Shown piece after piece: positions 1 to 59,470 of a stretch of DNA of 64,000 nt (its first letter is position 1; the number at the start of each line of letters is the position of its first letter). Source of the DNA: Octopus vulgaris (lineage: Eukaryota); assembly GCA_951406725.2 (NCBI GenBank), contig OX597820.1, positions 30,504,001 to 30,568,000 on the forward strand. Reading direction: 5' to 3'. The notes beneath the pieces are model-generated. The model worked only from the letters and a program-made list of their open reading frames with translations, did not search any database and was not told the DNA's origin. The position numbers and the translations under genes were made by a program.

Positions 1-144
1 GAGATAAAGCTTGATTTAAGAAAAATGTCCAGATTTAGTAGACATCATATATGATAGTGTTTCTATAGCTGGTATATGTGGCAAAAGTGTACAAAATCAA
101 GCATTTGATGTGTTCAATATGAAGAATGCATTTCTTTTGTTTGC

Positions 145-327
145 ATTCATCATCGTCTAATGTCCACTTTCCATGCTAGCATGGGTTGGACGATTTGACT
201 GAGAGCTGGCAAACCAGATGGCTTCACAAGACTCCAATCTTGATCTGGCAGAGTTTCTACAGCTGGATGCCCTTCCTAACACCAACCACTCCGAGAGTGT
301 AGTGGGTGCTTTTATGTGCCACCGGCA
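145..327 (-). mobile_element. RTE 3'-tail element (also 39100-39300, 60940-61210, 61715-61910, 62405-62645, 63165-63312)
   Basis: GTTAGGAAGGGCATCCAGCTGTAGAAAC...CCAACCCATGCTAGCATGGAAAG-y-GGAC-r-TTA...GATGATG recurs across the window. Confidence 0.8.
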
Positions 328-814
328 GTGATTAATACTCATTCCTCAAGCTTGATAAGCAGGATAAGACATAGATGACAGGAAGCCTGTCTATTAAAAA
401 AGAAATCACACTCAATCACTAGCACTTTCTGACATCTTGGTAAAATTCTGTCCATTTTGTAAACTAAGCAACATGGACTGATGCAAAAAGCAAAGCACCA
501 TATAACTGTACAGAATGTGCTGAAACCATCCACTGTTTAGTCTGAAGAGATGGAGCATACAAGGTTGACCAGTGCCAGATACACCATTTAAAAACTGTCC
601 GTCTTCAATGATGACCCATCAACCCAATGGATTATGGGATTCAAAATAAAGTAATCTGCTCACAAGGAAACCAATTCTTTTAGCAGGGATTGAGGTTATT
701 TACCAAGTTATACACTCAGGCCATTATGAGCTCTTAAGCTCCAGCCAATAACAGGTTCAGGCTATGAACAACAATGCCAAGGTCATCTATATATACTTCC
801 AATTAAAAAAAAAT

Positions 815-865
815 AATTTATAAACGAAAACAAACAAAATAAAACAAATAAACCAAAACTTTATT
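815..865 (-). terminator. Polyadenylation signal AATAAA plus downstream GU/U-rich element
   Basis: Minus strand reads AATAAA GTTTTGGTTTATTTGTTTTATTTTGTTTGTTTTCGTTT. Confidence 0.5.
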
Positions 866-913
866 TTTCTTTGAAAATATAATGGAAGAATAATAAAGTG
901 ATATTTATCTCAA
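840..913 (-). other. LARP1: Putative alternative terminal exon of LARP1 (Cys-stop, short 3'UTR)
   Basis: Strong acceptor GTTATTTTCTTTTTCAG at 914-930. A phase-2 join gives TG|T TGA. AATAAA lies at 860-865. Confidence 0.5.
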
Positions 914-2744
914 CTGAAAAAGAAAATAACAGTGGAGGGAAGAAAGGAGCACAAGACCTTTCTGGGTCCTTTAGTGCAATAAATATATTTGAGTTTTGTT
1001 TTTGCACACAATATGTTATGCAAACAACAGTGTTGTCTCTTCACACATTAGCATCATGTGAACCATGTTGTACCCTGTGCTGTTTGCATATAAAAACACC
1101 AATAATTAACACCAAATTTCTTTGCCTTCACCTGTGTAAGCACAATGCAAGTCTGCTGTATTCTCATGGAAGAGAAGCTATAACCAAATGCAAGTATTTT
1201 GCAATTTATCAAAATCCATATGCAACGAAAACTGTTGAAAATATCAAGCTGAAACCAATATGACTATGCATTGTGCAATCAGTGCTGCACTGTTGCGCAT
1301 GTGATATTTCCATGTGGCATACAATTGATCCCATATTCAAGTGCACTCCAATCTTTGAAACAGCTATCTGTGCACTTGCTCTCCAAATGGGTTAATAAAC
1401 AGCATATGTATGAATGCACGTGCAAACATGCAGGTATTGTTTGTGTTCATAGAAGTTCTTTGGAAGTGTAAACTATAAAAACCACTCCAAGAGATGAAGA
1501 AATGAGAATGCACAAGAGCAAAGATGATTGAGTGTGAAAAAATGAGAGTGAGCGAGCAATGTTAGAGAGGAATAGAATGAGATGTTAACCCCTTTGTTAC
1601 CAAATTTCTATAGAATATACTGTCTGTTTCAATATAACTTGATGTTCTAGAGGAAAGCTTTAATTTAAATCACTTTAAAATAAAGTTTGTACCATAGAAA
1701 CAATGGTGGTCACAGGTAGGTTGGTATCAAAAGGGTTAAATAAGTGAGAATGAGCATAGTGGTACAAGGAAGAGAAAGCTGAAGGTGGAGCAGAGATAAA
1801 AAGCATTTACCTCTCTATCACAGACCAAATCAACAATTTCAAAAAGAAAACCCATATTGTATAACATTGTGTGATACACTATGGGTTTATATGTATACAT
1901 ATATCAATGATTATGTTCTTCAGAAAACAGTGGAACCTCTTCTATCCCAGGCCTCACAACCAGTTAATTTTTTAAAATATTAGAAGCAGAAATATCAATC
2001 CTTTAGCAATCAGATTACTGTAAGATGTAATGTTTATTCATTCAATTTGTTTTGAATTAATCCTTGCATTATCAAGATATTGATGATGTGGAATATATAT
2101 TTTTAGAATGACATTGTAGGGTAGGTGGAGAGACTAGATCTGGCCAGTTTGAACATAAAACAACATTATGGCCAATCTAAATGCTAGAAGGTTAAAGGAA
2201 GTCATTAACCTTCCAAATCATTGAGGTTCAAGCTTGAATTAATTAGTCAATGACTAAAACACTATTTAGGCCAATGGCTAAAAGTAAATTGTATGAACAT
2301 TTTTTTTTCTAATTGAACCATGAGCAATGTAATATCTGAATATACATTGCTTCAGTGAAATAAGTCTATTAACAGATGAGGGATCAATCATTCAAGATAC
2401 TGATATACAAAACACAGCAGTGAGGATGTGATGTAGATTATATTAGACAGCTTAACCCGACAGAGAAATGAATAACAGAACAAAGCTGTTTGTCATGTCA
2501 AGTTGGTTAGACATCAATTTCTAATGAAACGTTTTAAAGAGGTCAGTTGCTTCTTGTCCAAATGTATGTCCCCCACCCCTACCAAATATCTACACATTGG
2601 TTAGACAAATGGATGGATAGAGAAGTAAATGTATATGCCCTCAGAGTGCAGGAAGGAAATGCTGTCTAACTATGAAGAGGAGCTGTTTTAACAGTCTTTG
2701 ATAAATGTTTAGAAGAATTTGAAAGAAAATCAGAATTGTCCGAC

Positions 2745-2845
2745 CATTCACTGAAGCAGTTGCGTCGTCCAACTTCAAGTTGCTCTAATTCTTCATCAAG
2801 CATAAAATTCAACTCTTCCCGTTCTGTATCATCAGCTTTATCATC
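2745..2845 (-). CDS. LARP1: LARP1 exon 11 (101 nt, phase 0 to 2): DDKADDTEREELNFMLDEELEQLEVGRRNCFSE(W)
   Basis: TAACAG acceptor after a pyrimidine tract. Matches LARP1 EELDFLFDEEMEQMDGRKNTFTAW. The putative donor ATG|GTCGGA at 2744 is weak. Read-through stops at TAG 2666-2668. Confidence 0.88.
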
Positions 2846-3591
2846 CTGTTAAGACAAACCCAAGAAAAGAAGAAAAAGGAAAATATGTTTAGTGAGGTAT
2901 ATAGAAGCAACAATAAAAAAAAACAAAAAAAAAATCTTTTTTAAAGGAAAACAGCAGGTTAAAGGAGCCAACTGTCACCCAGGCTGCTAGAAACAGCACC
3001 AAAACCTCCCTCAAGCCGTATCTTGCCTCCTTAATGGGTGGATGGGTTGGTGAAGTAATGCAGTATCAGATAAAACATTAAGTTGGGAATATGTTGTCCT
3101 TAATTATATTAAAGGGTATCCTGCTAGTGAACCTTAACCAGAATGTAATGTCAGCCAAGAAATAACGAAAGAACCAGCACTAACGTGGTGGGAGGAAAAG
3201 AAGAAAAAAAAAAAAAAGAGACTACCTCAATGAAACAAATTCAGTATTTTTAAAGAGGAAATCATCAGACTCAACAAACTGCAATCTTGATGGCAATTTC
3301 AGAGTGAATTTAGACCAAATATAGGCAGCCTAATATTATGATGTTAAATTGTTGGTAGTTACAGGAACAGATACTAAGCTACATCAACTGTGCAACTTCA
3401 AATCTATGTTGTTATATTCACACAAAATGTATCAGATAATTTATAGTACTTTTTTCAATAATTCAGTACTAGTAGATTTCAGTTTCTGTTAACTTGGTAA
3501 TGGCTGGAATATCTTTGACTTTGGTCAACTTGATGGCAGAGCTGTTCTGGAACTGAATAACAACTCGTGTTTTTTTATTATGCTCATGTTA

Positions 3592-3980
3592 GCAGGAGTG
3601 GCTGTGTGGTAAGTAGCTTGCTTACCAACCACATGGTTCCGGGTTCAGTCCCACTGCGTGGCATCTTGGGCAAGTGTCTTCTGCTATAGCCTCGGGCTGA
3701 CCAATGCCTTGTGAGTGGATTTGGTAGATGGAAACTGAAAGAAGCCTGTCGTATATATGTATATATATATACATGTATGTGTGTGTGTTTGTCCCCCCAC
3801 CATCGCTTGACAACCAATGCTGGTGTGTTTACGTCCCTGACACTTAGCGGTTCGGCAAAAAGAGACCGATAGAATAAGTACTGGGCTTACAAAGAATAAG
3901 TCCCGGGGTCGATTTGCTCGACTAAAGGTGGTGCTGCAGCATGGCCGCAGTCAAATGACTGAAACAAGTTAAAGAGTAAA
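3592..3980 (+). mobile_element. Full-length tRNA-derived SINE (octopus-type, family A)
   Basis: A/B-box-like head TGGCTGTGTGG...GGTTCAGTCC, internal (TA)n/(TG)n and tail ...AATGACTGAAACAAGT. Near-identical copies occur elsewhere in the window. Confidence 0.88.
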
Positions 3981-4079
3981 GTATACATCTTCTACAAACA
4001 TAGTGAGGTTTGAAGAGAACGAGTGTGGCCACATAGTCACTGTTTGTGCCAGACATTCTAATTTTAAAATGTATACTAA

Positions 4080-5341
4080 CCCTTTCATTACTAACCCAGC
4101 CGAAAAATTTTTTGGTTCATAATACCAACCCAGCCTAGAGAACCTATTGTTATTTAAATGTAAATTTGAACCCAAATCTCGTTGGTACATACGTTAAAAC
4201 ATGTGATTTCACATTGTAAATAGTTAAGTTATAGTATCCGACATTGCTTGAAGTGATATCTCAACTCAGTGAATATTGGGAGATTTTTTTCCACATTTTT
4301 TTCGGCATCGATTTTACTTCAACTTTGAAAATGGATAGGAGTTTCATGTTATCAAGCATTGATTCCGAATTTAAAGCTTTTTCAACGGAAAATAGGGAGA
4401 TATCGAGAAAAAGAATCAAATTGGTACAGAAGCACGTGGTGTACAAAATAATGAATAAGATATTTTTTTATCCGAAAATGAAAGCAGCGATTCTGAAGAA
4501 ACAAATCGGCGATGGCGACAGCAAAGATGATTTTACATCGGAATGAAGTAAAAAAACTTTAAAAATGTTATTAGCAATTTTTCTGGGGAGATAGTTTATC
4601 TATAGTCTTTCTTAGAAAGCGAAACCATTAGACTTTTATTTTTTTCAGTATGCTAGTTTGAAGCGACCACTTCAAAACCAAATTTACGCAGATTGTAAAC
4701 AAACACAAAAGTTTGGAAAATTTGTGAAGCAAATACTGGGTACTGTTGTGGAATTAGTTATTATACAGGGAAAATAATGTTAGTCAGCATGGCCTAGGGA
4801 ACGATGTGGTCTGGAATTTATCACTTCCATACCATAACCAGGGCTGTATATTATTTTTTGACCGATTTCTTTAGTTCGGTCAAACTTGCGGTGGATTCCA
4901 GTATTTCAGTTTATTCCACCTTCATGATACACCTGTTGTGCATTAAATTCAACTGATGATCTAGTGATGTGCACAATTCTTCTTTATCAAAATTTTGTTG
5001 CATACCCATTTGAATATTAGCTGATGATTCATTTTCTATGGTGATGTTTAAACAAAATTTTAATATTTTTACCTTTTGCTCAATTTAAAATTTTAATATT
5101 TTTACCTTTTGCTCAATTTACCTGGATTTACCTGTAATTAAAGTCACTTTGAGACAAAAGTTATGCAATAGAATTGATTAAGAACCCTTTCTTTAATTAT
5201 GTTCCAAATATCACATTAATATGTTGATAAGTAAAAAAGTTACAGTTATTTAATGAAACAAGCCTAAATTCATGATTATTTTAGAATTTAATCGAAACTC
5301 ATGAGGGGTATATTTTGGTCAGAAATATAGTAACGAAAGGG
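4080..5341. mobile_element. Non-autonomous piggyBac-type element (1262 bp)
   Basis: TIRs CCCTTTCATTACTA and TAGTAACGAAAGGG (13/14 match), flanked by CTAA and TTAA. Internal 33-bp tandem duplication at 5054-5119. Confidence 0.75.
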
Positions 5342-5629
5342 TTAAGCTGTACGAAAGTGTGAATGCCATGCATTAGTGATGAATTTATATATTTTTGCTC
5401 CAAGCTCTAAAATTTCTGCTCAGTATTGGGAAAAATTAGAGGGAATGCTTATTATTATAAAAATGTAAACGTTTATAAAAGCATCACCATAGATATTCCC
5501 CTTTGTGAAACAAAGGTATATATTTTGAAAGAATCCCACATTTTCTCACACAAAATAATAATCATTTTAAAAGGCAAAACTCATACTTAGATGTTTATGT
5601 AAAGTTATGATTGCATTAAAGACAATTAC

Positions 5630-5844
5630 CTCTCGACTTCGTTTTTCTTTCTGTGCACATTTCTTACGGTTTCGTACCTGAACCCATTCAGCCTGTAAAT
5701 CTGGTGCACTCTGTGAGACGACAGGAGGTATGGTAAGTAAGTTTGAAGGAACACCTTCAAGTGTAGGTTCACTGGGAGTTTCCTCATTTAAGTCTTCAGA
5801 TTCTTTGCCTTCAGTTCCTCCCAGGCTATGGCTATCTTCAGTAT
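5630..5844 (-). CDS. LARP1: LARP1 exon 10 (215 nt, phase 1 to 0)
   Basis: VSQSAPDLQAEWVQVRNRKK resembles LARP1 LSASLPDLDSENWIEVKKR. TTACTAG acceptor and GAG|GTAATT donor. Confidence 0.9.
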
Positions 5845-6567
5845 CTAGTAACAAATTAAAAATAAATTTCATGAGTGTTGCAATTCATTTACATGCTCTT
5901 GCAGTTACTGCAGAATAGTCAGCAAGTTGAATGCCTTACTAGTGCTTATCTTTTTTAAAGCAGACCAAATATAACAGAAATTACTTATGCTAAAGTTGGC
6001 AAAATAGTTAAAATATTTCCGAGGAAGATATACCGATGAACTTAGAAGGGTGAAAGGAAATAATTATTAATCCTTTAACATTCAGATTATTGTCAAATGT
6101 AATGCTTATTTATTCACATTGCTTAGAATAAATCATATATTATGTTGTAACTCAGAGATTTCAATGATATGATTGCTTGATTTTAGACTGACATTGTAGG
6201 GTAGGTGTAGGAGGCCAGATCTGGCCAGTCCGAATACTAAATAACTGTAAATGGTAATAACTAGGTTGCTAGTGTAAAACTATAATGTAATTTGTGCCAT
6301 AATGGAAATGTGTACAACCACTACTGGTTTACATATTTAAGAAATTACTTGAGTTCATTAAATACTACATAAAAAAACAAATTGGTAAAAAACTGTTTCA
6401 ATTATTTTGGTGGAAAAACAATGAAATTATTATGGACATTATTTTTAATAAAGTAAGAGTAAGAAATGAGTAGGAGGAGAGAGATTCTGGTAGGTTTGAA
6501 CTCAGAGAAAGTACAAAAGTAGCTGCAAGGCAGCCTGAAAGAATTTTTTTTTTTTAAATCAACATAC

Positions 6568-6739
6568 TGCGTTCAGGGAATGCATAAGTTTGGCCTGGAA
6601 TAAATTCTGGAACATCTGGGTGAAGGTTACTTTTGGGAGGCAAAACTGGTGCCGAGACAGGCCATTTTGACGGACCTTCCTTAGGTCGAACAGCATTCAA
6701 ATCTACAGAGTATTCAACTGTATCACTGTCTTGAAGTGC
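6568..6739 (-). CDS. LARP1: LARP1 exon 9 (172 nt, phase 0 to 1): end of La motif and PAM2 motif
   Basis: Encodes ALQDSDTVEYSVDLNAVRPKEGPSKWP...SNLHPDVPEFIPGQTYAFPER. CTACAG acceptor and GCA|GTATGT donor. Not in the ORF track. Confidence 0.93.
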
Positions 6740-7586
6740 CTGTAGTAAGGAAAAGATGACAGAATTAAGAGTTATTTTATATAAATAACCGAAGAAATAA
6801 TAACAGCAACTCTCAAAAGCAATGCAACTGTTTGCAGTTCAGAGCAGATGTTGCAATGCGAGAGCAAACTATTAATCTCACAAATAACTGTTGTGGGGAA
6901 ACAGAAAAAACTTGCCAGAGAAATATCCTTCTAAATTCAGTCAAATCTTACATTGGGGGAAAATAATGGCCATGAACCTACATTAGAAAGAAAAGCTCCC
7001 AGTGGGCAAAGTTTTACAACTTTCAACGAAAGAAATAATTTGAATTTATAAATAATTTTTTTTAAATGTCTTAATTTTCATCCCCCGCCCTATTTTATTT
7101 ACCTGTAAGGTAAGTGACAAATTCTACATAATGAAATTAGTGATTTATGTATGCGTGTGCATATTTATGCATACAAGTAGTGTGCACTGATTTATTTACA
7201 TTTTGTAGTTTTCTTCAAAGGTTTTGGAAAATTCCAATATTTTATGGTATTTTACCTTTTGGAGCTCACCTGCTTTAAAGTGACTCCTCAAAGACAGTGG
7301 AAACCCAATAATGTGCACAACATTTCTGTACTACATATCTGTTATATATCCTAGCTGAATATTGGCTAATATTTCTTTGTGAGGTAATATTTAAACAAAA
7401 TTAAATTTTACATCCTGCTGAATTTACTTCTGAGTTGTAGCTGAAGCTGATGGATAGTTTTTGACTTGGAGCCGGCAATTAACTTTTTTTAAAATGTCAC
7501 ATTGATATTATCAGAATCAGAACTAACTGGATCTAAACTTTCCACTGTCACTGAATTATCAGACAGGAAGCAAATTCGAAACTTAC

Positions 7587-7731
7587 CTCAATAATAACAT
7601 CCATAACTTTAGTGGCGTTGGCAATTCGCCGGAACGTTGAGATGAGTGATAAAGGAATCCATCCATCCTGATCCATGTTTTGCCGTAGGAAATAGTCCCG
7701 GTTCAAGTTATCTTCTGACAAATAGTACTCT
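7587..7731 (-). CDS. LARP1: LARP1 exon 8 (145 nt, phase 2 to 0): La motif core
   Basis: EYYLSEDNLNRDYFLRQNMDQDGWIPLSLISTFRRIANATKVMDVIIE aligns with the LaM consensus QIEYYFS-x-DNL-x-RD-x-FLR-x-x-MD-x-x-G. TTTTCAG acceptor and GAG|GTAAGT donor. Confidence 0.96.
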
Positions 7732-9149
7732 CTGAAAATAAAAAAAAAAGATGCAAAATAGAAATACAAAGATATATATATATCATCATTATCATTTAAC
7801 AGATGGCATGATAAAAAAGGAAGGACACATTATAGTCCTAAATATATTACATACGTGTGTGAGGAAATCGAGAGGTGAAACACCTTTGACCATAGGTTTG
7901 CTTAATTATGCTTATCTGAGACAAAACTACCACAACAACCCAACCAGCAACATTTGGTACCATACAGGTCATATGGTTAAAAAAAAAAGTTACAAAATAA
8001 TTTTTTTAAAAATTCAGAAAAGAAAAAAAAAGTTATTAGCACCGAAGTTTCTCATTTCACTGAGAACTCAAGTGTAACACTTCTGCTCTCCCTGCCAGCT
8101 TCTGAATTGTACACATTCACATGTATGAGATAACAACCTGATCTGCATTAATCTACAGTCTTGGACAACTTACAAAACTAATTCTCTATCTGTTTATACT
8201 AAGCTGTACACATAGGATACTAACATTGCTAAATCCTTATACTTTCCAATAGAATTATGCACTGTGTAGCATACTAATTGCACTACTTTTAGAATAGATG
8301 TGTGCACATAACATATATTTTATCCCCAAAATAATATTTAAATAAATTTATACAATACTGTCTAGTACAATGTATTTCAGTATCAATAGTGTATCACTGA
8401 ATTTATTTGGTAATTTCAAGAAATTTTGGGATATGGCTAAAATGATCAAGTCACCTAACTACACATCCTAATATTAAGGGCTATCACCCAACCAAATAGC
8501 AGGAAACTAAACCCGAAGTCCAAGACTCAGTGATTAACCAAATGGGCTACTTCATTAAACTGACAATATAGCTTATTTTATCAACCTCAGAAGGATAAAG
8601 TTATGTTGTTTCTCCAAAATAAGGAATAAATTATCTAGATTGTCTAAAATTGCCACCGTCTCTTCTGAGAGCCATAAAGGGATCTCAAATATAAATAAAT
8701 ACATACAAAATCAATAATTATAATCAGTTACTAACTCCTATTTTAAAGGTTATGAATCCTTCAGTCAATATTATAATATAAACAGTGTAACACAAAACAC
8801 TTGGTTGAATCTTCGGTCAATATTCCATTACAATTAATGTAACACGGATTCCAAGTCAAAAGCGCTGGATTGAGGAGAAAATATTAATCCTCTAACATTC
8901 AAATTATTCTGTCAAATGTAAAGTTTATGTATTCACACCATCTTAAATAATCATACATTATTTCAAGGGTTTGAGATTTCAATGATGTGGTTGTTTATTT
9001 TTAAAATGACACGGTAAGGTAGCTATGAAAGACCATATCTGTCTAGTTTTAATAGAAAACAGGTAGAATATTTTGGCCTGGATATGGCCCATTAAAACAA
9101 TAAAGGGTCAAATAATAATTTAGAGGTAAAGTAAATGGAAAGAACTTAC

Positions 9150-9267
9150 ATTTGACTTTTGATGAACTCTTTCACTTGTGCGTTGTCATAAGACTGAATG
9201 CCATAGTACATGGTCCCATTGAAATAGGCTGTTGGATCATATTGGTAAGGATCATGCAGAGAAAACC
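9150..9267 (-). CDS. LARP1: LARP1 exon 7 (118 nt, phase 1 to 2): Y-rich linker and start of La motif (...VKEFIKSQI)
   Basis: CCCTTTCACTAG acceptor and AAT|GTAAGT donor. Encodes FSLHDPYQYDPTAYFNGTMYYGIQSYDNAQVKEFIKSQ. Confidence 0.88.
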
Positions 9268-38500: not shown

Positions 38501-41500
38501 GTGGAAGAAGCCATACATCTGGCCAGTTTCAACATAAAACAGATAAGAATAGTAGGGTAGGATTTGGCCAGATTAAATAATGTCAACATTTCTTATCTAG
38601 GAAATTTAGAAAACAAAAGGGCTTTAAGCAGGCAAGCTAAACAAGGAAGAGACACAGGAGTTACAGTGAATATGGAGATATGACAAAAATAAGTAAACAG
38701 AACATCAAGGATGTTACAAATTATGGGAGACTTTGAAAGGAAACCTGGTTAGATTAATCAATAGATCATGAGATTCACTCCTGACGAAGTAACAAAACTG
38801 ACCAGTTTGATTGGTAAAACCGTTTAAAAAAAATTATTTCTATATTTGAGTTTATAGCATTAAAGAATAAGTACCCAGCCACAAAAGATATTACAACATT
38901 GGAAAACATGCTAGCACAAATCAAGGGAGCCTATGCTATTGCATATGAGGTAACAGCCTTGATTCTCTCCATGTATACACTACCATCTTATAAAAGGAAG
39001 GATGCATTGAGTAATATAGTAACTGTACTTGAGAAGACATCAAACTAAGTAAAATCGCAGTCATCCATACAGGCTTGTCTTTCACAGGTGCCGGTGTCAC
39101 GTAAAATGCAAAAATGCATCCATAGGTTGCATGTAAAAGCCCCCAGCACACACTGTAAAGTGGTTGTTGTTATGAAAGGCATCCAGCCATATAAACCATG
39201 CCACAACAGATAATCGGAATCTGGACAGCTCCCAACAGGCCAGTTCCCTGTCAAACCACCCAACCGATGCCAGCATACAAAACAGATGTTAAATGATGAC
39301 TATAATGATTGGAAAGAGATAAGTTGCCTGATAGGTACAGGTGTGACTATGTGGTTGAGAAACCTGCATCCTAACTACATGGTCTTAGCTTCAATCCCAG
39401 TATAGCACCTTCGGTGTGTGTCTTTTACTATAGCCCTGGGTCAATCAAAGCCTTGTGAGTGAATTTGATAGATGGAAACTGAAAGAAGCCTGTCGTGTCT
39501 GTTTGTGCTTGTCACATCTTGTGACGATTGAAAATGAGCAACTCCAATATACAGGTAATGTTATTTGCTTCTAATTTTTCATGGAAAATATGTTTAAGCA
39601 TGGGAAACATTATCTTGCTTGGAAATAGGTGAAGGCTGGCAACAGAAAGAGCACCCAGAGTAGAAAATCTACCTCGACAAATCCCACATAACCAGAGCAA
39701 GCATGGAAAAGTGAACATTAAATAATGGTGGTTATGGCTGCAACACCTTTGATCAGGTCACCGACCCCAAGCAACACAATGGACGCTATTTCAACATATC
39801 CATTATTTTAATACCAAGCAACAAATCATTAAAAGAAAACACAATTTATTTCATTAAAAGAAATTGTGTTTTCTTTAATATCAAATAAAATGCCTGGCAG
39901 AGAAAAATACCAAAATAAGGGGTATTTGGAATCTAGAATCTATCCAGCCTAGTTTACACTCCATCAGAGACAGCTGTAGAAAAAACACCCAAGCCTTTTA
40001 TAAACAGTTCAATATTTAGTGAATTATCACCTTCTTGACACCAACCCACCTGAAGTTGTCTCTTATTTATACAAAACCTATTTTGTAGTAGTCATACTTG
40101 ATTTAAAACCTTCCAACACCATTTTAACAAGAACCTTTGTAAGTTATGCTGTAAACACTACTACCTTCTTATGATAAAGTTATTTTAATAAACCCTCCAA
40201 GTTCTTATTTCCAAAACAAATGATAACATGAAAAGCAGGATGATCCTAAGTGGAACATTGTTGATCATAGGTCTGTTTAATCACAGCTGACTCTAGGACT
40301 TGACAAAAGATTACCTAAAAAATTTAATCAGGAAAAAAAAAAAAAAAAAAAATAAAGCCATGAAACCAAACTTGGAACAACAAAAATATAGTAAAAAAGT
40401 AAAATGAAACTGAAGCATACCTTGAACTTTCGTCACAGTTTCTAAAAATAGATAGAAAAAGAGATTTTGTAAAATACAAACAAAATAAAGCAATAGTTTA
40501 ATTTATATGTAAACAATGAAGCTAAAATCAACATTAAATTCTAGCTCCATATTTGTTGCTATATAGTTTTCATGACCATAATGTACATGGACATCAAGTT
40601 TAAAGCTCAATGGTCATGGTTTTTACTTGCTCCTACCTGTTGACATAATTGAAACATTTTGAAGTGAAATGGTTGGCATCAAGAAAGGGCACATACAGAT
40701 AATGAAAACACTGGTGACTACTATCATACAGGAGATTATACTTTGAGAGTCTTTTCAGAAACTAGATGGCTGAACTTTAAAACCTTGTTAGAAGCATTGT
40801 TATATTTCTAGGCATACAACTACTTGTCTTAAAGAAAAATATCACTTTATACATCAAAGTTGAGACTTATGTGTAAATCATACTAAAACCAACAAGCGCT
40901 TGTGAAATTAAATAGTTACAAGCATATAGAAAAGTATTTCAACTTCCTGTAAAATGCAAAACTATATTGCATTATTTCAAATTCACTAATGAGGAGGTAC
41001 AACTTATTTAACTTATGGAAAGTTCTAAGTGGCCCTTTATACCAAAAACCAGGTTAACAGGATCCGATCAAGTCACTCCTACTGCATTGTTCAAATGTTT
41101 TAAGTGCTACTGAAAAAGAATGTTGTCATACACAAACCCCTAATACAAACAACTTGCAAATGACAACTAACTTTTTTAGAGAAAGCTTTTATTCAGTGAC
41201 CTGATCCAGTAGGAATAGCTAAATCTCATTCAAACAACACCCTATTTTAGAGAGGACATTCGATAAAATAGTCCTTATAGACATGACAGTCACAACTGGA
41301 ATCACTTTCATCACAGTCCCGTTTATCAAGATTGACCTGGAGATAAAGAAAAACAAAATTTAAATAACAAACAAGACACAAGAAGTGATGCTGAGGCTCC
41401 TGTTTGCCAAGTGTACCAAATACCAAGAGCTTACATATTGCACTTAATTCCCACTACTCAAAATCCAATGCCTAATTATTTAGTTTAATGCTTCATTCAT

Positions 41501-44500
41501 TAAATGTAAATCAGTACCATTAACCATTATACGAGGTATAGTGTTAATCCTGATGGGAGTGGTACCTATAATCAGTTGAATCAACTTCATGTTAATGCTA
41601 CCTATTTCAAAGATACCAGTGAGAAATCAATCTTACACAAACTGACTGAAATATCCGACTAGACACCATAGAGTATCTGATTCCAGCTGATTCATCTACT
41701 CTTTTACTTATTTCAGATATTGGACTGCAGCCTTGCTGAGTTACGCCATTCAAAAATCCAGTCAAAATAGACGCAACTCTTATCTTAAGTCTACAGGTTT
41801 CTTTTTACTGAACTACTAAATTATGCAATTGTAAAATAAAAACAAAAGCTATCACGGATTGTCAAGCAGAGTGTGCGGAGACAAACCTAAATACACATAT
41901 ATTGTTGGTGTTAAGAAAGTCAGCCAGTAGTAGAAATCATGCCAAAGTAGACAGAAACACAACAGTCTTCTGACCTGACAGACCATTCAACGTATGCTAG
42001 TATGACAGCCAGATGTTACAAAATGATAATGATACATACACACTCACACAAATTCACTAGGCCCAAAGGTCTAGTAGGAGACACCTGAGCAAAGTTTCAA
42101 ACAGTGGGACTGAACCCAAAACCACATGGTTTAAACGTCTAACGACTCCATAATTCTCGGACCATAAAACCTCAACATTTCAATACACAAACAACAAAAC
42201 ATTTTAAACTGAGGCAGCGAGGGAAGTAATTCCCTACGTGTTCATTTCAGAAAAAGTGGTTATCTTCCCTTTGCTAGATGTCCTTTATGACGCCAATTTG
42301 TAAAATACCAAAGAACAGTGTATTACTTTGAACGAGGTAAATCAATATTTTTACGTTTCCATACCCAGAAACTACCATGAATTAATTGAACACTAAAAAT
42401 TTATGCCTTCGTTAATCAAAGAAGTTTTTCTTTTAACAACTGCCCTATTTCAACACCAGAGTAAGACTAACCCTTTCTACTCAAAGTAAAACTGACAGGG
42501 AAGTCAGCATTTTCATCAATTTAACGTCTACATTTCCATACTTGCGAGGGTCACATTGGGATTCATTCAAGAAGATTTTTCATGGCTGAATGCACTTCTT
42601 GTTGCCAACCCTCACCAGTTTAAAAGCAAAACAATGTTTGCTCCAAATCTGGACATGGGATTGCAAGCACAGCATGAGGTCAGGCGAGACAGAAACATCC
42701 ACCACACACAGGCTTCTTTTTAGTTTCCGCTAGGTAAATTTACTCACAAGGTTTTGATCAGTGTAGGGCTAGAGTAGAGGACACTTGTACAAGGTACAAG
42801 GTACTGCACTTTGGGACAGTTGTGAAGCTAACTTCTTAAACAAGCAAACATACTGTCTGTACATTTATCGTGTGTCACTCAGAAAAAAATCCTATCAATG
42901 AGCCTCAAGATATAACTAAAAACACAAATCCATGTGTGTGTGTGTGTGTGTACACACACACATGTGTATATCATATATATTTAAAATGTATGTATTGGGG
43001 GTTACTGGTGTTACTAAAAGACCCTGCAAGACTGCAGTCCAATGACTGAAAAAGTAAAATATATAAACAAATATGCATACTACACACATACACAATTATA
43101 TGTGTGTGAAAAATTAATATAAACAGCAGTTTGCAATGTTTCATCAAAAGGGAGATTTATAATTGTCCCCGAGTGTGACTAGGGTGTTAGAAACATCTAT
43201 ATTGTCAGAAATAAGAGCTAAAATGCTCCGATAATGCAGTCAACGCACATAAATGAAACATAAACTAACAGGGACCTTAATCAACCGAAAAATGCCGATA
43301 TACACACACATTCAAATTAAAATATTTTAGCTAATTTTGCCTATTGTTTTTTCTCACTACACATTCGTTGCCCAGAATAAAACAAAGCCGAATAAAATTC
43401 AGAGATTCCATTACAAACTAGCTATTGTAATTAATGTCAGAGCTATTGGTTAAAGTATAAACAAAAGAACTGGTTATAGAAAGCAGTCCTGACTTATTAA
43501 TTCACTTGAAATAAATTTAGTAACAGAACTGTATTAAGTGAGGGAGGGGGTAAATGAAAGGCATCACTAAAGCTACAAAGAAAAAAGAAACCAAACAAAT
43601 TACAAGACGAAATTTAGGATACTAATAATAATAATAATACTTCAATGCAATTTAAATCTGCTTTCTCTATTTTATAATAGCATTAATAAATTTAGGAGTC
43701 TATACTTAAAATATACCCATATTGTAAGAGTATAAGTGTGTACTAACAACTGAAATGTCACTGCTAGAACATTATCTTTCACCTGCAGATATTTGTGTAT
43801 GTGCGTGGGTACGTATGTATTTGTGTGTACACACACCAAACTAAAATAGGAGGTTGAGGAAAATTTTGTAAGTACAATGTACAAGGTCAAATTCGTAAAG
43901 GAGAAAGAAATATTTTTTAAAATATATGTTTATAAGTCCTAAGTCAACTCTGATCATGTTCCTCCCAGGTTTAAGATGCTGGCGTGAGATGAATTGGCTG
44001 CTATTTCTAATAGGTCGAGCGTCCACGAGAGGACTCTTGTCGACTCGAATACATATTTTTGACCCAGATGGAATTTGTACTGAGTATTGAGAGGATCAAA
44101 ACTAAAAACAACCACTGTAAACATACACACACGCACATATATGTGTGTGTGTGAGTGTGTGTGTACTTGTCCAACAGGTAAGTAGGTACTGGGGTATCTT
44201 TTATCGTGCTCCAGTTCGTGTAGATCAAACATTTGAAGTACAAGAAAACAGCAGATGTTATCAAATGAAATACATTCACAGCAACAATCCCACACAGACA
44301 AGATTAAACAGGAAATTTTAGCATCTAGTCAGAGGTAAAGAGCAAACTCAAACGGTAAACAAAATGAGATTTAGAGGAAAGTACTCATTAGTCGAACCTA
44401 GACGAAATGGTAAAAGGTGAAATAGTAAAAATTTACCAACAAGGTAAAAAATGTGAGAGATGGAGACTCTTAGCGTGTCGTGTCCACAACTGGAAAACAA

Positions 44501-58164: not shown

Positions 58165-59227
58165 TTATTTTTAAAATAAAATATGGTCCGTTGTCTTCTG
58201 CTGAACTGGGGTCATCTCATCTCTTGACCCTAGGGTCACAGCAGGTCCTCATCTCATGGAGAGTACACGGCGTAAAATGTGTGCAGAACCTAGCAACACT
58301 ATTTTCTGAAGTTCTCACATGTTAACACTGCAAAGGAGTTTGTTGAGCTACTTATCAAGGCCCTTTTTAATTAGCCCTCACGCTCCAATCACCACTAGTG
58401 CTGTGCTGCTTTTCATTCTCCACATCCTGGTCACTTCTATTTCTAGGTCTTTGTACTTAAATAACTTCTCAACTTCTTTAATGGACACATTTCTCTCTGC
58501 TGGTACTGTCACATCTATCATTAAGCATTTCTTATTCCCATCTTTGAGGATTATGTCTGGCCTGTTTGCCTTGATTTCTTTATCGGTGTTGATTGGCATG
58601 TCCCAGAGTACTGTTACATCATCTTCTCTGGTCACAGTTTCAGGTTTATGCTGGTACCATCTTTCTGAAGTTGGAAGCTGGTAGTGTTTACATATCTTCC
58701 AATAGATATGTTGTGCTACTCTATTGTGTCTATGAATATATTCGGTTTTTGCAAGCGCTGTGCATTCAGTTAAGATGTGGTCCACTGTTTCATCCTGCTC
58801 ATGACACATTCTGCATTTCGGGTCAGTGCCATCGTTCATTATTTTGTTGTGGTAAACCTTGGTTGCCAAGCTTTGATCTTGTGCTATGATAAAACCTTTG
58901 GCTTCAGCCTCCAGTCCTGTGCTCTTCATCCATACATGAGTGTCTCGTTTTTCTACATCTGGTTTCTTCACTCTACATGGGTATCAGCGATGCATCGGTT
59001 TTTCTAGCCATTCTTCTTTGCTCTTCTTCTGGGCTTGTTTTTTCATCTCTTTCTTAACTCCTTTAGCAAACTGGGTTACTTTCTCACTCGCCTTCATCCT
59101 AGGTTCTTCCGTCATCAGTTGTTTCCCAAACTGTACAGATTCTTTGTATACCGAGTATAGCTTCTTTACTTTATCATGCTGGTGCACAAGCTTCATTAGA
59201 GGATCTTCTGACAGCTCAAGATATGCA
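58165..59227 (-). mobile_element. 5'-truncated R4/Dong-like non-LTR retrotransposon (CCHC knuckle and restriction-like endonuclease), disrupted
   Basis: CRMCHEQDETVDHILTEC, RHN, RPDIIL...IDVTVP, KYKDL and a frameshifted LQKIVLLGSAHILRRVL. TAA/ATT repeats lie on both flanks. Confidence 0.9.
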
Positions 59228-59256
59228 TTTATTATTATTATTATTATTATTATTAA

Positions 59257-59470
59257 GGTAGTGAGCTGGCAGAATCGTTAGCACGCCGGGCGAAATGCTT
59301 AGTCGTAGTGCATCTGTCTTCACTTTTTTGGGTTCAAATGTCGCCAAGGTCGACTTTGCCTTTCAACCTTTTGGGGGTTAATAAACTAAGTACTAGTTAC
59401 ACACTGAGGTCAATGTAATTGACAGGTACCCTCCCCCCAAATTTCAGGCATTGCGCATGTTGTAGAAAGA
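59257..59470 (+). mobile_element. tRNA-SINE with Deu/Nin-type core (second copy 22912-23080, minus)
   Basis: GGTCGACTTTGCCTTTCAACCTTTTGGGGGTTAATAAACTAAGTAC resembles the Deu/Nin core GCCTTTCATCCTTTCGGGGTCGATAAA-x-AGTACC. Confidence 0.7.

Follow-up and report, generated by a model that had tools for sequence, protein, structure and literature searches.

The mechanism considered here, intronic polyadenylation, is itself ordinary and known. In composite terminal exons, RNA runs from an exon into the 5' part of the following intron up to an intronic poly(A) signal, while skipped terminal exons combine a strong 3' splice site ahead of the poly(A) signal with low cover of the 5' part of the intron (definitions as given in the available sections of PMC10227441). 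The same combination of a weak 5' splice site, an intronic poly(A) signal and continuous exon-intron RNA is described for intron 3 of CstF-77, where the site is conserved and where the available sections of the report attribute no apparent protein to the short RNAs (PMC3708835). Short members of the LARP1 family have been described as well. The LARP1-S proteins of yeasts and plants, encoded by separate genes, carry a C-terminal La motif without DM15 and are tied to translation (PMC12645190). Human LARP1B, a minor paralogue with 40-fold lower levels in HeLa cells (PMC2938220), has isoforms of 512 and 358 aa (PMC2938220, PMC12645190), and nine LARP1b isoforms are listed without detail in the accessible part of PMC4693254.

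LARP1 itself combines two roles, repression of TOP mRNA translation through DM15 and stabilisation of poly(A) tails through the La motif and PAM2, which in the literature examined have so far been split via engineered fragments. A human fragment comprising residues 310-540 suffices to protect poly(A) and to stabilise mRNA (PMC9458460, citing Mattijssen 2021), and DM15 is essential for TOP regulation in human cells (PMC9458460). The ribosome-binding region of human LARP1 covers residues 660-724 (PMC11649897) and RAPTOR binds mainly the C-terminal part of the protein (PMC8034618).

Here, we describe intron 12 of the LARP1 gene of Octopus vulgaris, which probably serves as part of a composite (read-through) terminal exon with polyadenylation near 840, yielding a predicted LARP1 of 631 aa without the ribosome-binding region and DM15. 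The window is a stretch of 64,000 nucleotides (contig OX597820.1, positions 30,504,001 to 30,568,000), and its relevant features are collected in Table 1. The original prediction had proposed an intronic poly(A) site giving a DM15-less LARP1 with La motif and PAM2; this core idea fits the RNA contigs and the signal statistics, but the proposed route, splicing from 2745 to 913, gives way to read-through.

Table 1. Positions of LARP1 features in the window that bear on the short form.
Feature	Position	Strand	Details and basis
LARP1 coding exon 12	2745..2845	-	101 nt, residues 573-605 + two bases of W606; 21-exon model, RNA joint 5629-2844
5' splice site of intron 12, ATG/GTCGGA	2739..2747	-	lowest of 19 donors scored
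Read-through coding extension	2666..2744	-	completes W606, +25 residues (SDNSDF...APLHS), TAG at 2668-2666; open frame, predicted translation
Inferred 3'UTR of the short isoform, 1826 nt	840..2665	-	contig cover in 4/4 runs
Pyrimidine tract + CAG + T-TGA	910..945	-	acceptor-like; crossed unspliced in 4/4 runs
AATAAA poly(A) signal	860..865	-	sequence; X5 contig ends 20 nt downstream, at 840
U/GU-rich downstream element near inferred cleavage (about 840)	810..859	-	35 T + 13 GT-type trimers in 50 nt
Exons 8-10, La motif + PAM2-like motif, kept in the short form	6568..9267	-	exon map, PF05383, human LARP1 alignment
21-nt micro-exon = coding exon 2	40421..40441	-	between introns of 9.6 and 26.5 kb; required for P0001

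The host gene, which encodes a translation regulator and lies on the minus strand, was identified as octopus LARP1 by a frame of 59 aa at 2845-2669 (minus) that matches P0001, a predicted Octopus vulgaris protein of 1032 aa, in a search of proteins of 105-2000 aa. A model of 21 exons, built using the window and 100 kb further left, translates exactly to P0001 and extends from 50482 to 12.4 kb past the left edge of the window. Within P0001, the La motif (PF05383, 71.8 bits against a cut-off of 37.1) occupies residues 391-447 and the DM15 or LARP1 HEAT region (PF21071) residues 837-984. The exons for DM15, which had been predicted past the left window edge, indeed lie 7.8-11.3 kb left of it. Intron 12 measures 4633 nt and separates exon 12, which has one match in the 2.8-Gb genome in a search that scores best candidates only, from exon 13, whose start lies 1889 nt beyond the left edge of the window (L012:5111). 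At its 5' end, exon 8 offers two acceptors 39 nt apart (9267 and 9228, minus strand), and the deposited protein P0007 is devoid of the intervening 13 residues, which sit just N-terminal of the La motif; in addition, the deposited isoforms P0008 and P0012 with other N-termini imply alternative first exons. Besides, several other elements were seen in and around the gene: broken transposase pieces in LARP1 intron 15 (L012 about 680-1300, minus strand) that we assume to be mariner-like, two adjacent open frames of 201 and 97 aa at 58378-59277 (minus) which we take to resemble the end of a non-LTR retrotransposon with zinc knuckle and endonuclease, and, in L008-L011, at distances of 65-87 kb and 96-99 kb from the left window edge, frames presumably of the C2H2 zinc-finger type followed by a GC-rich stretch that looks, to us, like ribosomal DNA.

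Information on transcription comes from assembled contigs. Twenty of the 24 runs listed hold 77-90% of the words of 700-3000 and X21-X24 next to none; four runs (X1, X5, X6, X8) from four studies and two coded organisms were compared with window positions 1-8000. These runs are strandless contigs whose RNA nature is guessed and which drop rare variants, and since they were chosen by the presence of this same stretch, read-through is over-represented among them. All four contain the spliced joints 7586-6738, 6568-5844 and 5629-2844, and depth is zero in the bins 3205-3471 and 7210-7476 inside spliced introns; therefore, the runs behave as RNA. Intron 12 appears in each of them as unspliced contigs, one from 2771 to 2133 (2098 in X5) and a further one from about 2125 to 298, 840, 495 and 298; in three runs, cover is interrupted for 7-9 nt by a repeat near 2130. 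For X1, X6 and X8, 2742 is the last position of the spliced contig, which has 30 nt in common with the intron contig, a pattern that we read, from the way contigs are built, as a fork in the assembly graph. Since the first letters are GTCT in exon 13 and GTCG in the intron, these two paths part after the common GTC, at 2742, and a path from TG/T to 913 would fork at 2745. The intron contigs hold only 27 letters of exon 12, the bridging rule being 31, so that the continuity of exon and intron rests on the 30-nt overlap. Their depth amounts to 0.43-0.74 of that of the spliced contig, which we only read as intron-reading RNA not being rare in these runs, as contig depth cannot rank gene parts. 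At 1413 and 1820, the contigs of all four runs also carry letters other than those of the assembly, probably as alleles, and X8 alone shows 2185 T>C, which would read as A>G on the sense strand.

The AATAAA at 865-860 and the U/GU-rich element from 859 named in the original prediction were both found. The downstream element comes first among the 49 intronic AATAAA sites in LARP1 and also first among 400 such sites when both strands of 164 kb are taken, by a score picked once the site was known. One of the four contigs, that of X5, ends at 840, and the sole X5 piece listed beyond it (430-666) has a depth of 6 compared to 61. The contigs of the other three runs reach 298-495 with mean depths of 107, 39.7 and 11.6; values of 101, 44.6 and 11.2 are expected if nearly all RNA ends at 840 and 143.5, 56.6 and 15.9 without a stop, a comparison that is a weak check as contig depth is flat. 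Internal priming is unlikely since the sense strand after 840 is T-rich and not A-rich, and the sole sense-strand A run of at least 8 lies at 2308, not at 840. Two features of a composite terminal exon are observed, RNA that runs on past exon 12 into the 5' portion of intron 12 in all four runs and an intronic poly(A) signal with its U/GU element, and the single contig end together with the depth comparison is a weak hint of a drop in cover behind the signal. The intronic poly(A) site is real and probably used. Inside the inferred 3'UTR, a donor-like GAG/GTAAAT (7/9 matches) at 1810 (minus) is traversed unspliced by the contigs.

At the upstream end, the donor of exon 12 is the weakest of those scored. 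Its leave-one-out score is -0.2 compared to 3.6 for the next lowest in a set of 19 LARP1 donors that leaves aside the micro-exon donor, and it shares 4 of 9 positions with the U1 consensus, compared to 5-8 for the other donors. The read-through frame continues as W-S-D-N-S-D-F where the spliced path gives W-S-D-D-E-D-L. Three of the first six residues are identical to the spliced continuation, compared to 0-1 in the other 19 introns. Scored with a profile for which 212 proteins supplied 28 distinct family hexapeptides, this site alone reaches its value among 3838 intronic GT positions, and 2 of 18,557 GT positions on both strands score the same or above; the test is post hoc, as it was devised once the motif had been noticed. 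The S-D motif at the start of the tail hints, at the level of sequence, at selection on the protein. Coding selection on the first codons of the intron would explain the poor donor, the alternative being a chance resemblance that was then tolerated. That the tail arose as a copy of exon 13 was rejected past six codons in shuffle tests (protein p 0.35 and 0.48, DNA p 0.34-0.75). Judged from protein ends alone, the position of intron 12 looks old: the beetle-cluster ORF P0295 ends W-stop where the spliced protein P0113 has C, the unnamed ORFs P0331 and P0332 diverge from the family sequence directly after W, and P0258-P0261, four ORFs of the catfish cluster, continue across it.

The route originally predicted relies on an acceptor at 913, and its signals are present on the minus strand: a pyrimidine tract at 945-917, CAG at 916-914, T913 and TGA at 912-910. 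With a matrix built from 19 real LARP1 acceptors, the site reaches 12.2, the leave-one-out median of the real ones being 7.8; among the 3089 intronic AG sites present across 62 kb, 7 attain 12.2, of which one is a real micro-exon and two have an AATAAA within 120 nt. The 913 site, 48 nt upstream of its AATAAA, thus provides the strong 3' splice site ahead of a poly(A) signal that characterizes a skipped terminal exon of about 75 nt, here encoding a protein of 606 aa ending FSEC, and as contigs lose rare variants and only 15 of 57 joints were shown, such splicing may have gone unseen. However, all four runs cross 913 unspliced, with over 31 letters to either side of it, the junction is absent from the 15 joints shown, the fork in three runs lies at 2742, and 2744-914 is covered in all four, contrary to the low cover of the 5' intron that belongs to a skipped terminal exon (PMC10227441, available sections). 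As the main route, splicing from 2745 to 913 is therefore very improbable; as a minor or tissue-limited form it is unlikely, if worth keeping in mind. The prediction was right about the phase-2 donor at 2745, yet the exon concerned is coding exon 12 rather than 11, and splicing would give a product of 606 instead of 599 aa. Both differences are due to the micro-exon at 40441-40421, which the first reading apparently missed. Compared with the true acceptor region, the 913 region gives p 0.10. A YTRA is absent from -60 to -12 of 913 and present in 16 of 20 real acceptors; we discarded this last, branch-point test because a CTAA at -61 falls just past its limit. Rather than opening an exon, the pyrimidine tract (945-914) may enhance the poly(A) site from upstream, as upstream pyrimidine tracts can stimulate 3' processing at a poly(A) signal via PTB (PMC2724285). 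Other acceptor-like sites occur in the gene, among them a long T run ending GCAG in intron 12, 29 nt left of the window (L012 about 6971, minus), whose score of 19.0 is the highest of all intronic AG sites, and further strong ones in introns 1-2 (minus strand) at 43572, 41336, 35790 and 29863, with an AATAAA 79 nt past 35790.

The same contigs could also stem from an intron 12 that is retained whole or spliced late as a detained intron, with little use of the AATAAA. The weakest donor scored would fit, as would the contigs of three of the four runs, which pass 840 and run out at 298, 495 and 298; a high-copy repeat lies at two of these ends. The stop of the X5 contig at 840, with the tenfold lower piece beyond, speaks against retention, and so do the mean depths of the longer contigs, near the values for a stop at 840 and below those for no stop, weak as this check is; we consider retention quite improbable. 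An independent or antisense transcript overlapping exon 12 is hardly probable at all: the contigs are strandless and a plus-strand AATAAA exists at 2912-2917, but cover begins exactly where the spliced LARP1 contig forks off, is 0-6 in the bin 2938-3204, and has its far end placed behind a minus-strand poly(A) signal. A different question is raised by the possibility that read-through polyadenylation serves as an attenuator that limits full-length LARP1, the short protein being scarce or functionless as for CstF-77 intron 3. Weak donor and intronic poly(A) site match the CstF-77 anatomy, which comes without apparent protein in the available sections of PMC3708835; moreover, the short protein is absent from the deposited entries examined and most of the 25-residue tail resembles nothing. 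On the other hand, the 606 residues that the frame retains include the La motif, intact, and a PAM2-like motif, and the family's acidic S-D motif recurs, at a rarity of 1 in 3838, in the first six tail residues. An attenuator without a functional protein therefore appears unlikely to us, although it is not a marginal case.

According to the composite terminal exon that we favour, the exon 12 donor would bind U1 poorly, so that LARP1 RNA would enter intron 12 unspliced and 3'-end processing at a strong site 1.9 kb downstream would compete with splicing to exon 13 at a distance of 4.6 kb. The poly(A) site would be aided by the pyrimidine tract, and cleavage and polyadenylation would take place behind the AATAAA. 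The resulting short mRNA would have no junction past its stop and would be translated. Its predicted product of 606 + 25 residues (618 in total for the P0007 splice form) includes, after the La motif, the stretch NLHPDVPEFIP, which aligns with the human PEFVP stretch and for which Pfam reports no PAM2 match; we treat it as a putative PAM2. In the alignment, the human ribosome-binding region begins to match at about octopus residue 640, within the part encoded by exon 13, and would therefore be lost together with DM15, a consequence that is absent from the original prediction. As predicted from human data, the short protein would bind PABP and poly(A) ends and stabilise mRNAs, and would be unable to bind the cap or 5'TOP, the 40S channel or, mainly, RAPTOR. 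Poly(A) protection without TOP repression is thus an extrapolation from human LARP1 fragments.

A broader scenario is offered tentatively, with the chances rather against it: the weak donor might be kept since the first intron codons spell W-S-D-x-S-D, a large share of LARP1 mRNA might end there, and a poly(A)-guarding product free of cap/TOP, ribosome and mTORC1 control might compete with full-length LARP1 for PABP, the ratio of splicing to polyadenylation setting how strongly ribosomal-protein mRNAs can be repressed. Since intronic polyadenylation in mammals shifts with mTOR activity (PMC11541570), one may also think of mTOR feedback on this site in octopus, which is speculation. If true, the choice of the 3' end would add a layer of control to the mTOR-TOP axis, and a natural isoform cut between the two halves of LARP1 would, if abundant, be an in-animal test of each half.

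We also looked for the tail or an early end in other collections. Neither was present in the 14 full octopus LARP1 entries from three species (15 of 15 listed cluster members; cluster listings comprise at most 15 members each), in the 270 motif-bearing proteins among 327 collected, or in the 8 matches among 1.84 billion representatives. When metagenomes were scanned with the read-through frame, none of 588 candidate stretches was confirmed; a scan with a LARP1 alignment kept 80 of 356 loci and listed at least 37 motif matches, none of which was useful for intron 12. A protein search over 30-372 aa for short La-motif isoforms returned 4 irrelevant matches. No report on LARP1 intronic polyadenylation or an octopus LARP1 isoform was found in a literature search mostly outside subscription journals. 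LARP1 and LARP1B are absent from four supplement files of PMC5928244, and LARP is absent from the text and four supplement files of the octopus long-read paper PMC9699675, whose transcript annotation could include the isoform.

Compared with the described systems, the octopus locus shares the weak 5' splice site, the intronic poly(A) signal and the continuous exon-intron RNA with composite terminal exons and with CstF-77 intron 3 (PMC10227441 and PMC3708835, available sections). In contrast to CstF-77, the octopus form would keep most of the protein and lose two functional regions. With LARP1-S it has in common a La motif without DM15, but it would be an isoform of a long gene, and about 185 of its 631 residues follow the La motif, whose end is at 447, which sets it apart from the C-terminal La motif of LARP1-S (PMC12645190, accessible part). 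The human LARP1B isoforms are likewise short forms of the LARP1 family, and their lengths of 512 and 358 aa suggest, by length alone, a loss of the C-terminal DM15. The vertebrate LARP1B cut is probably not at this intron, because the four catfish-cluster LARP1B ORFs P0258-P0261 read through the W-S-D position. A vertebrate-type LARP1B fragment of 84 aa (P0330) diverges directly after KKHPGG, before the ribosome-binding helix, and could mark where a short LARP1B isoform ends. Finally, the engineered human fragment 310-540 (PMC9458460, PMC12645190) is artificial and much shorter, whereas the octopus form would be a natural one that retains a long N-terminal disordered and RG-rich region.
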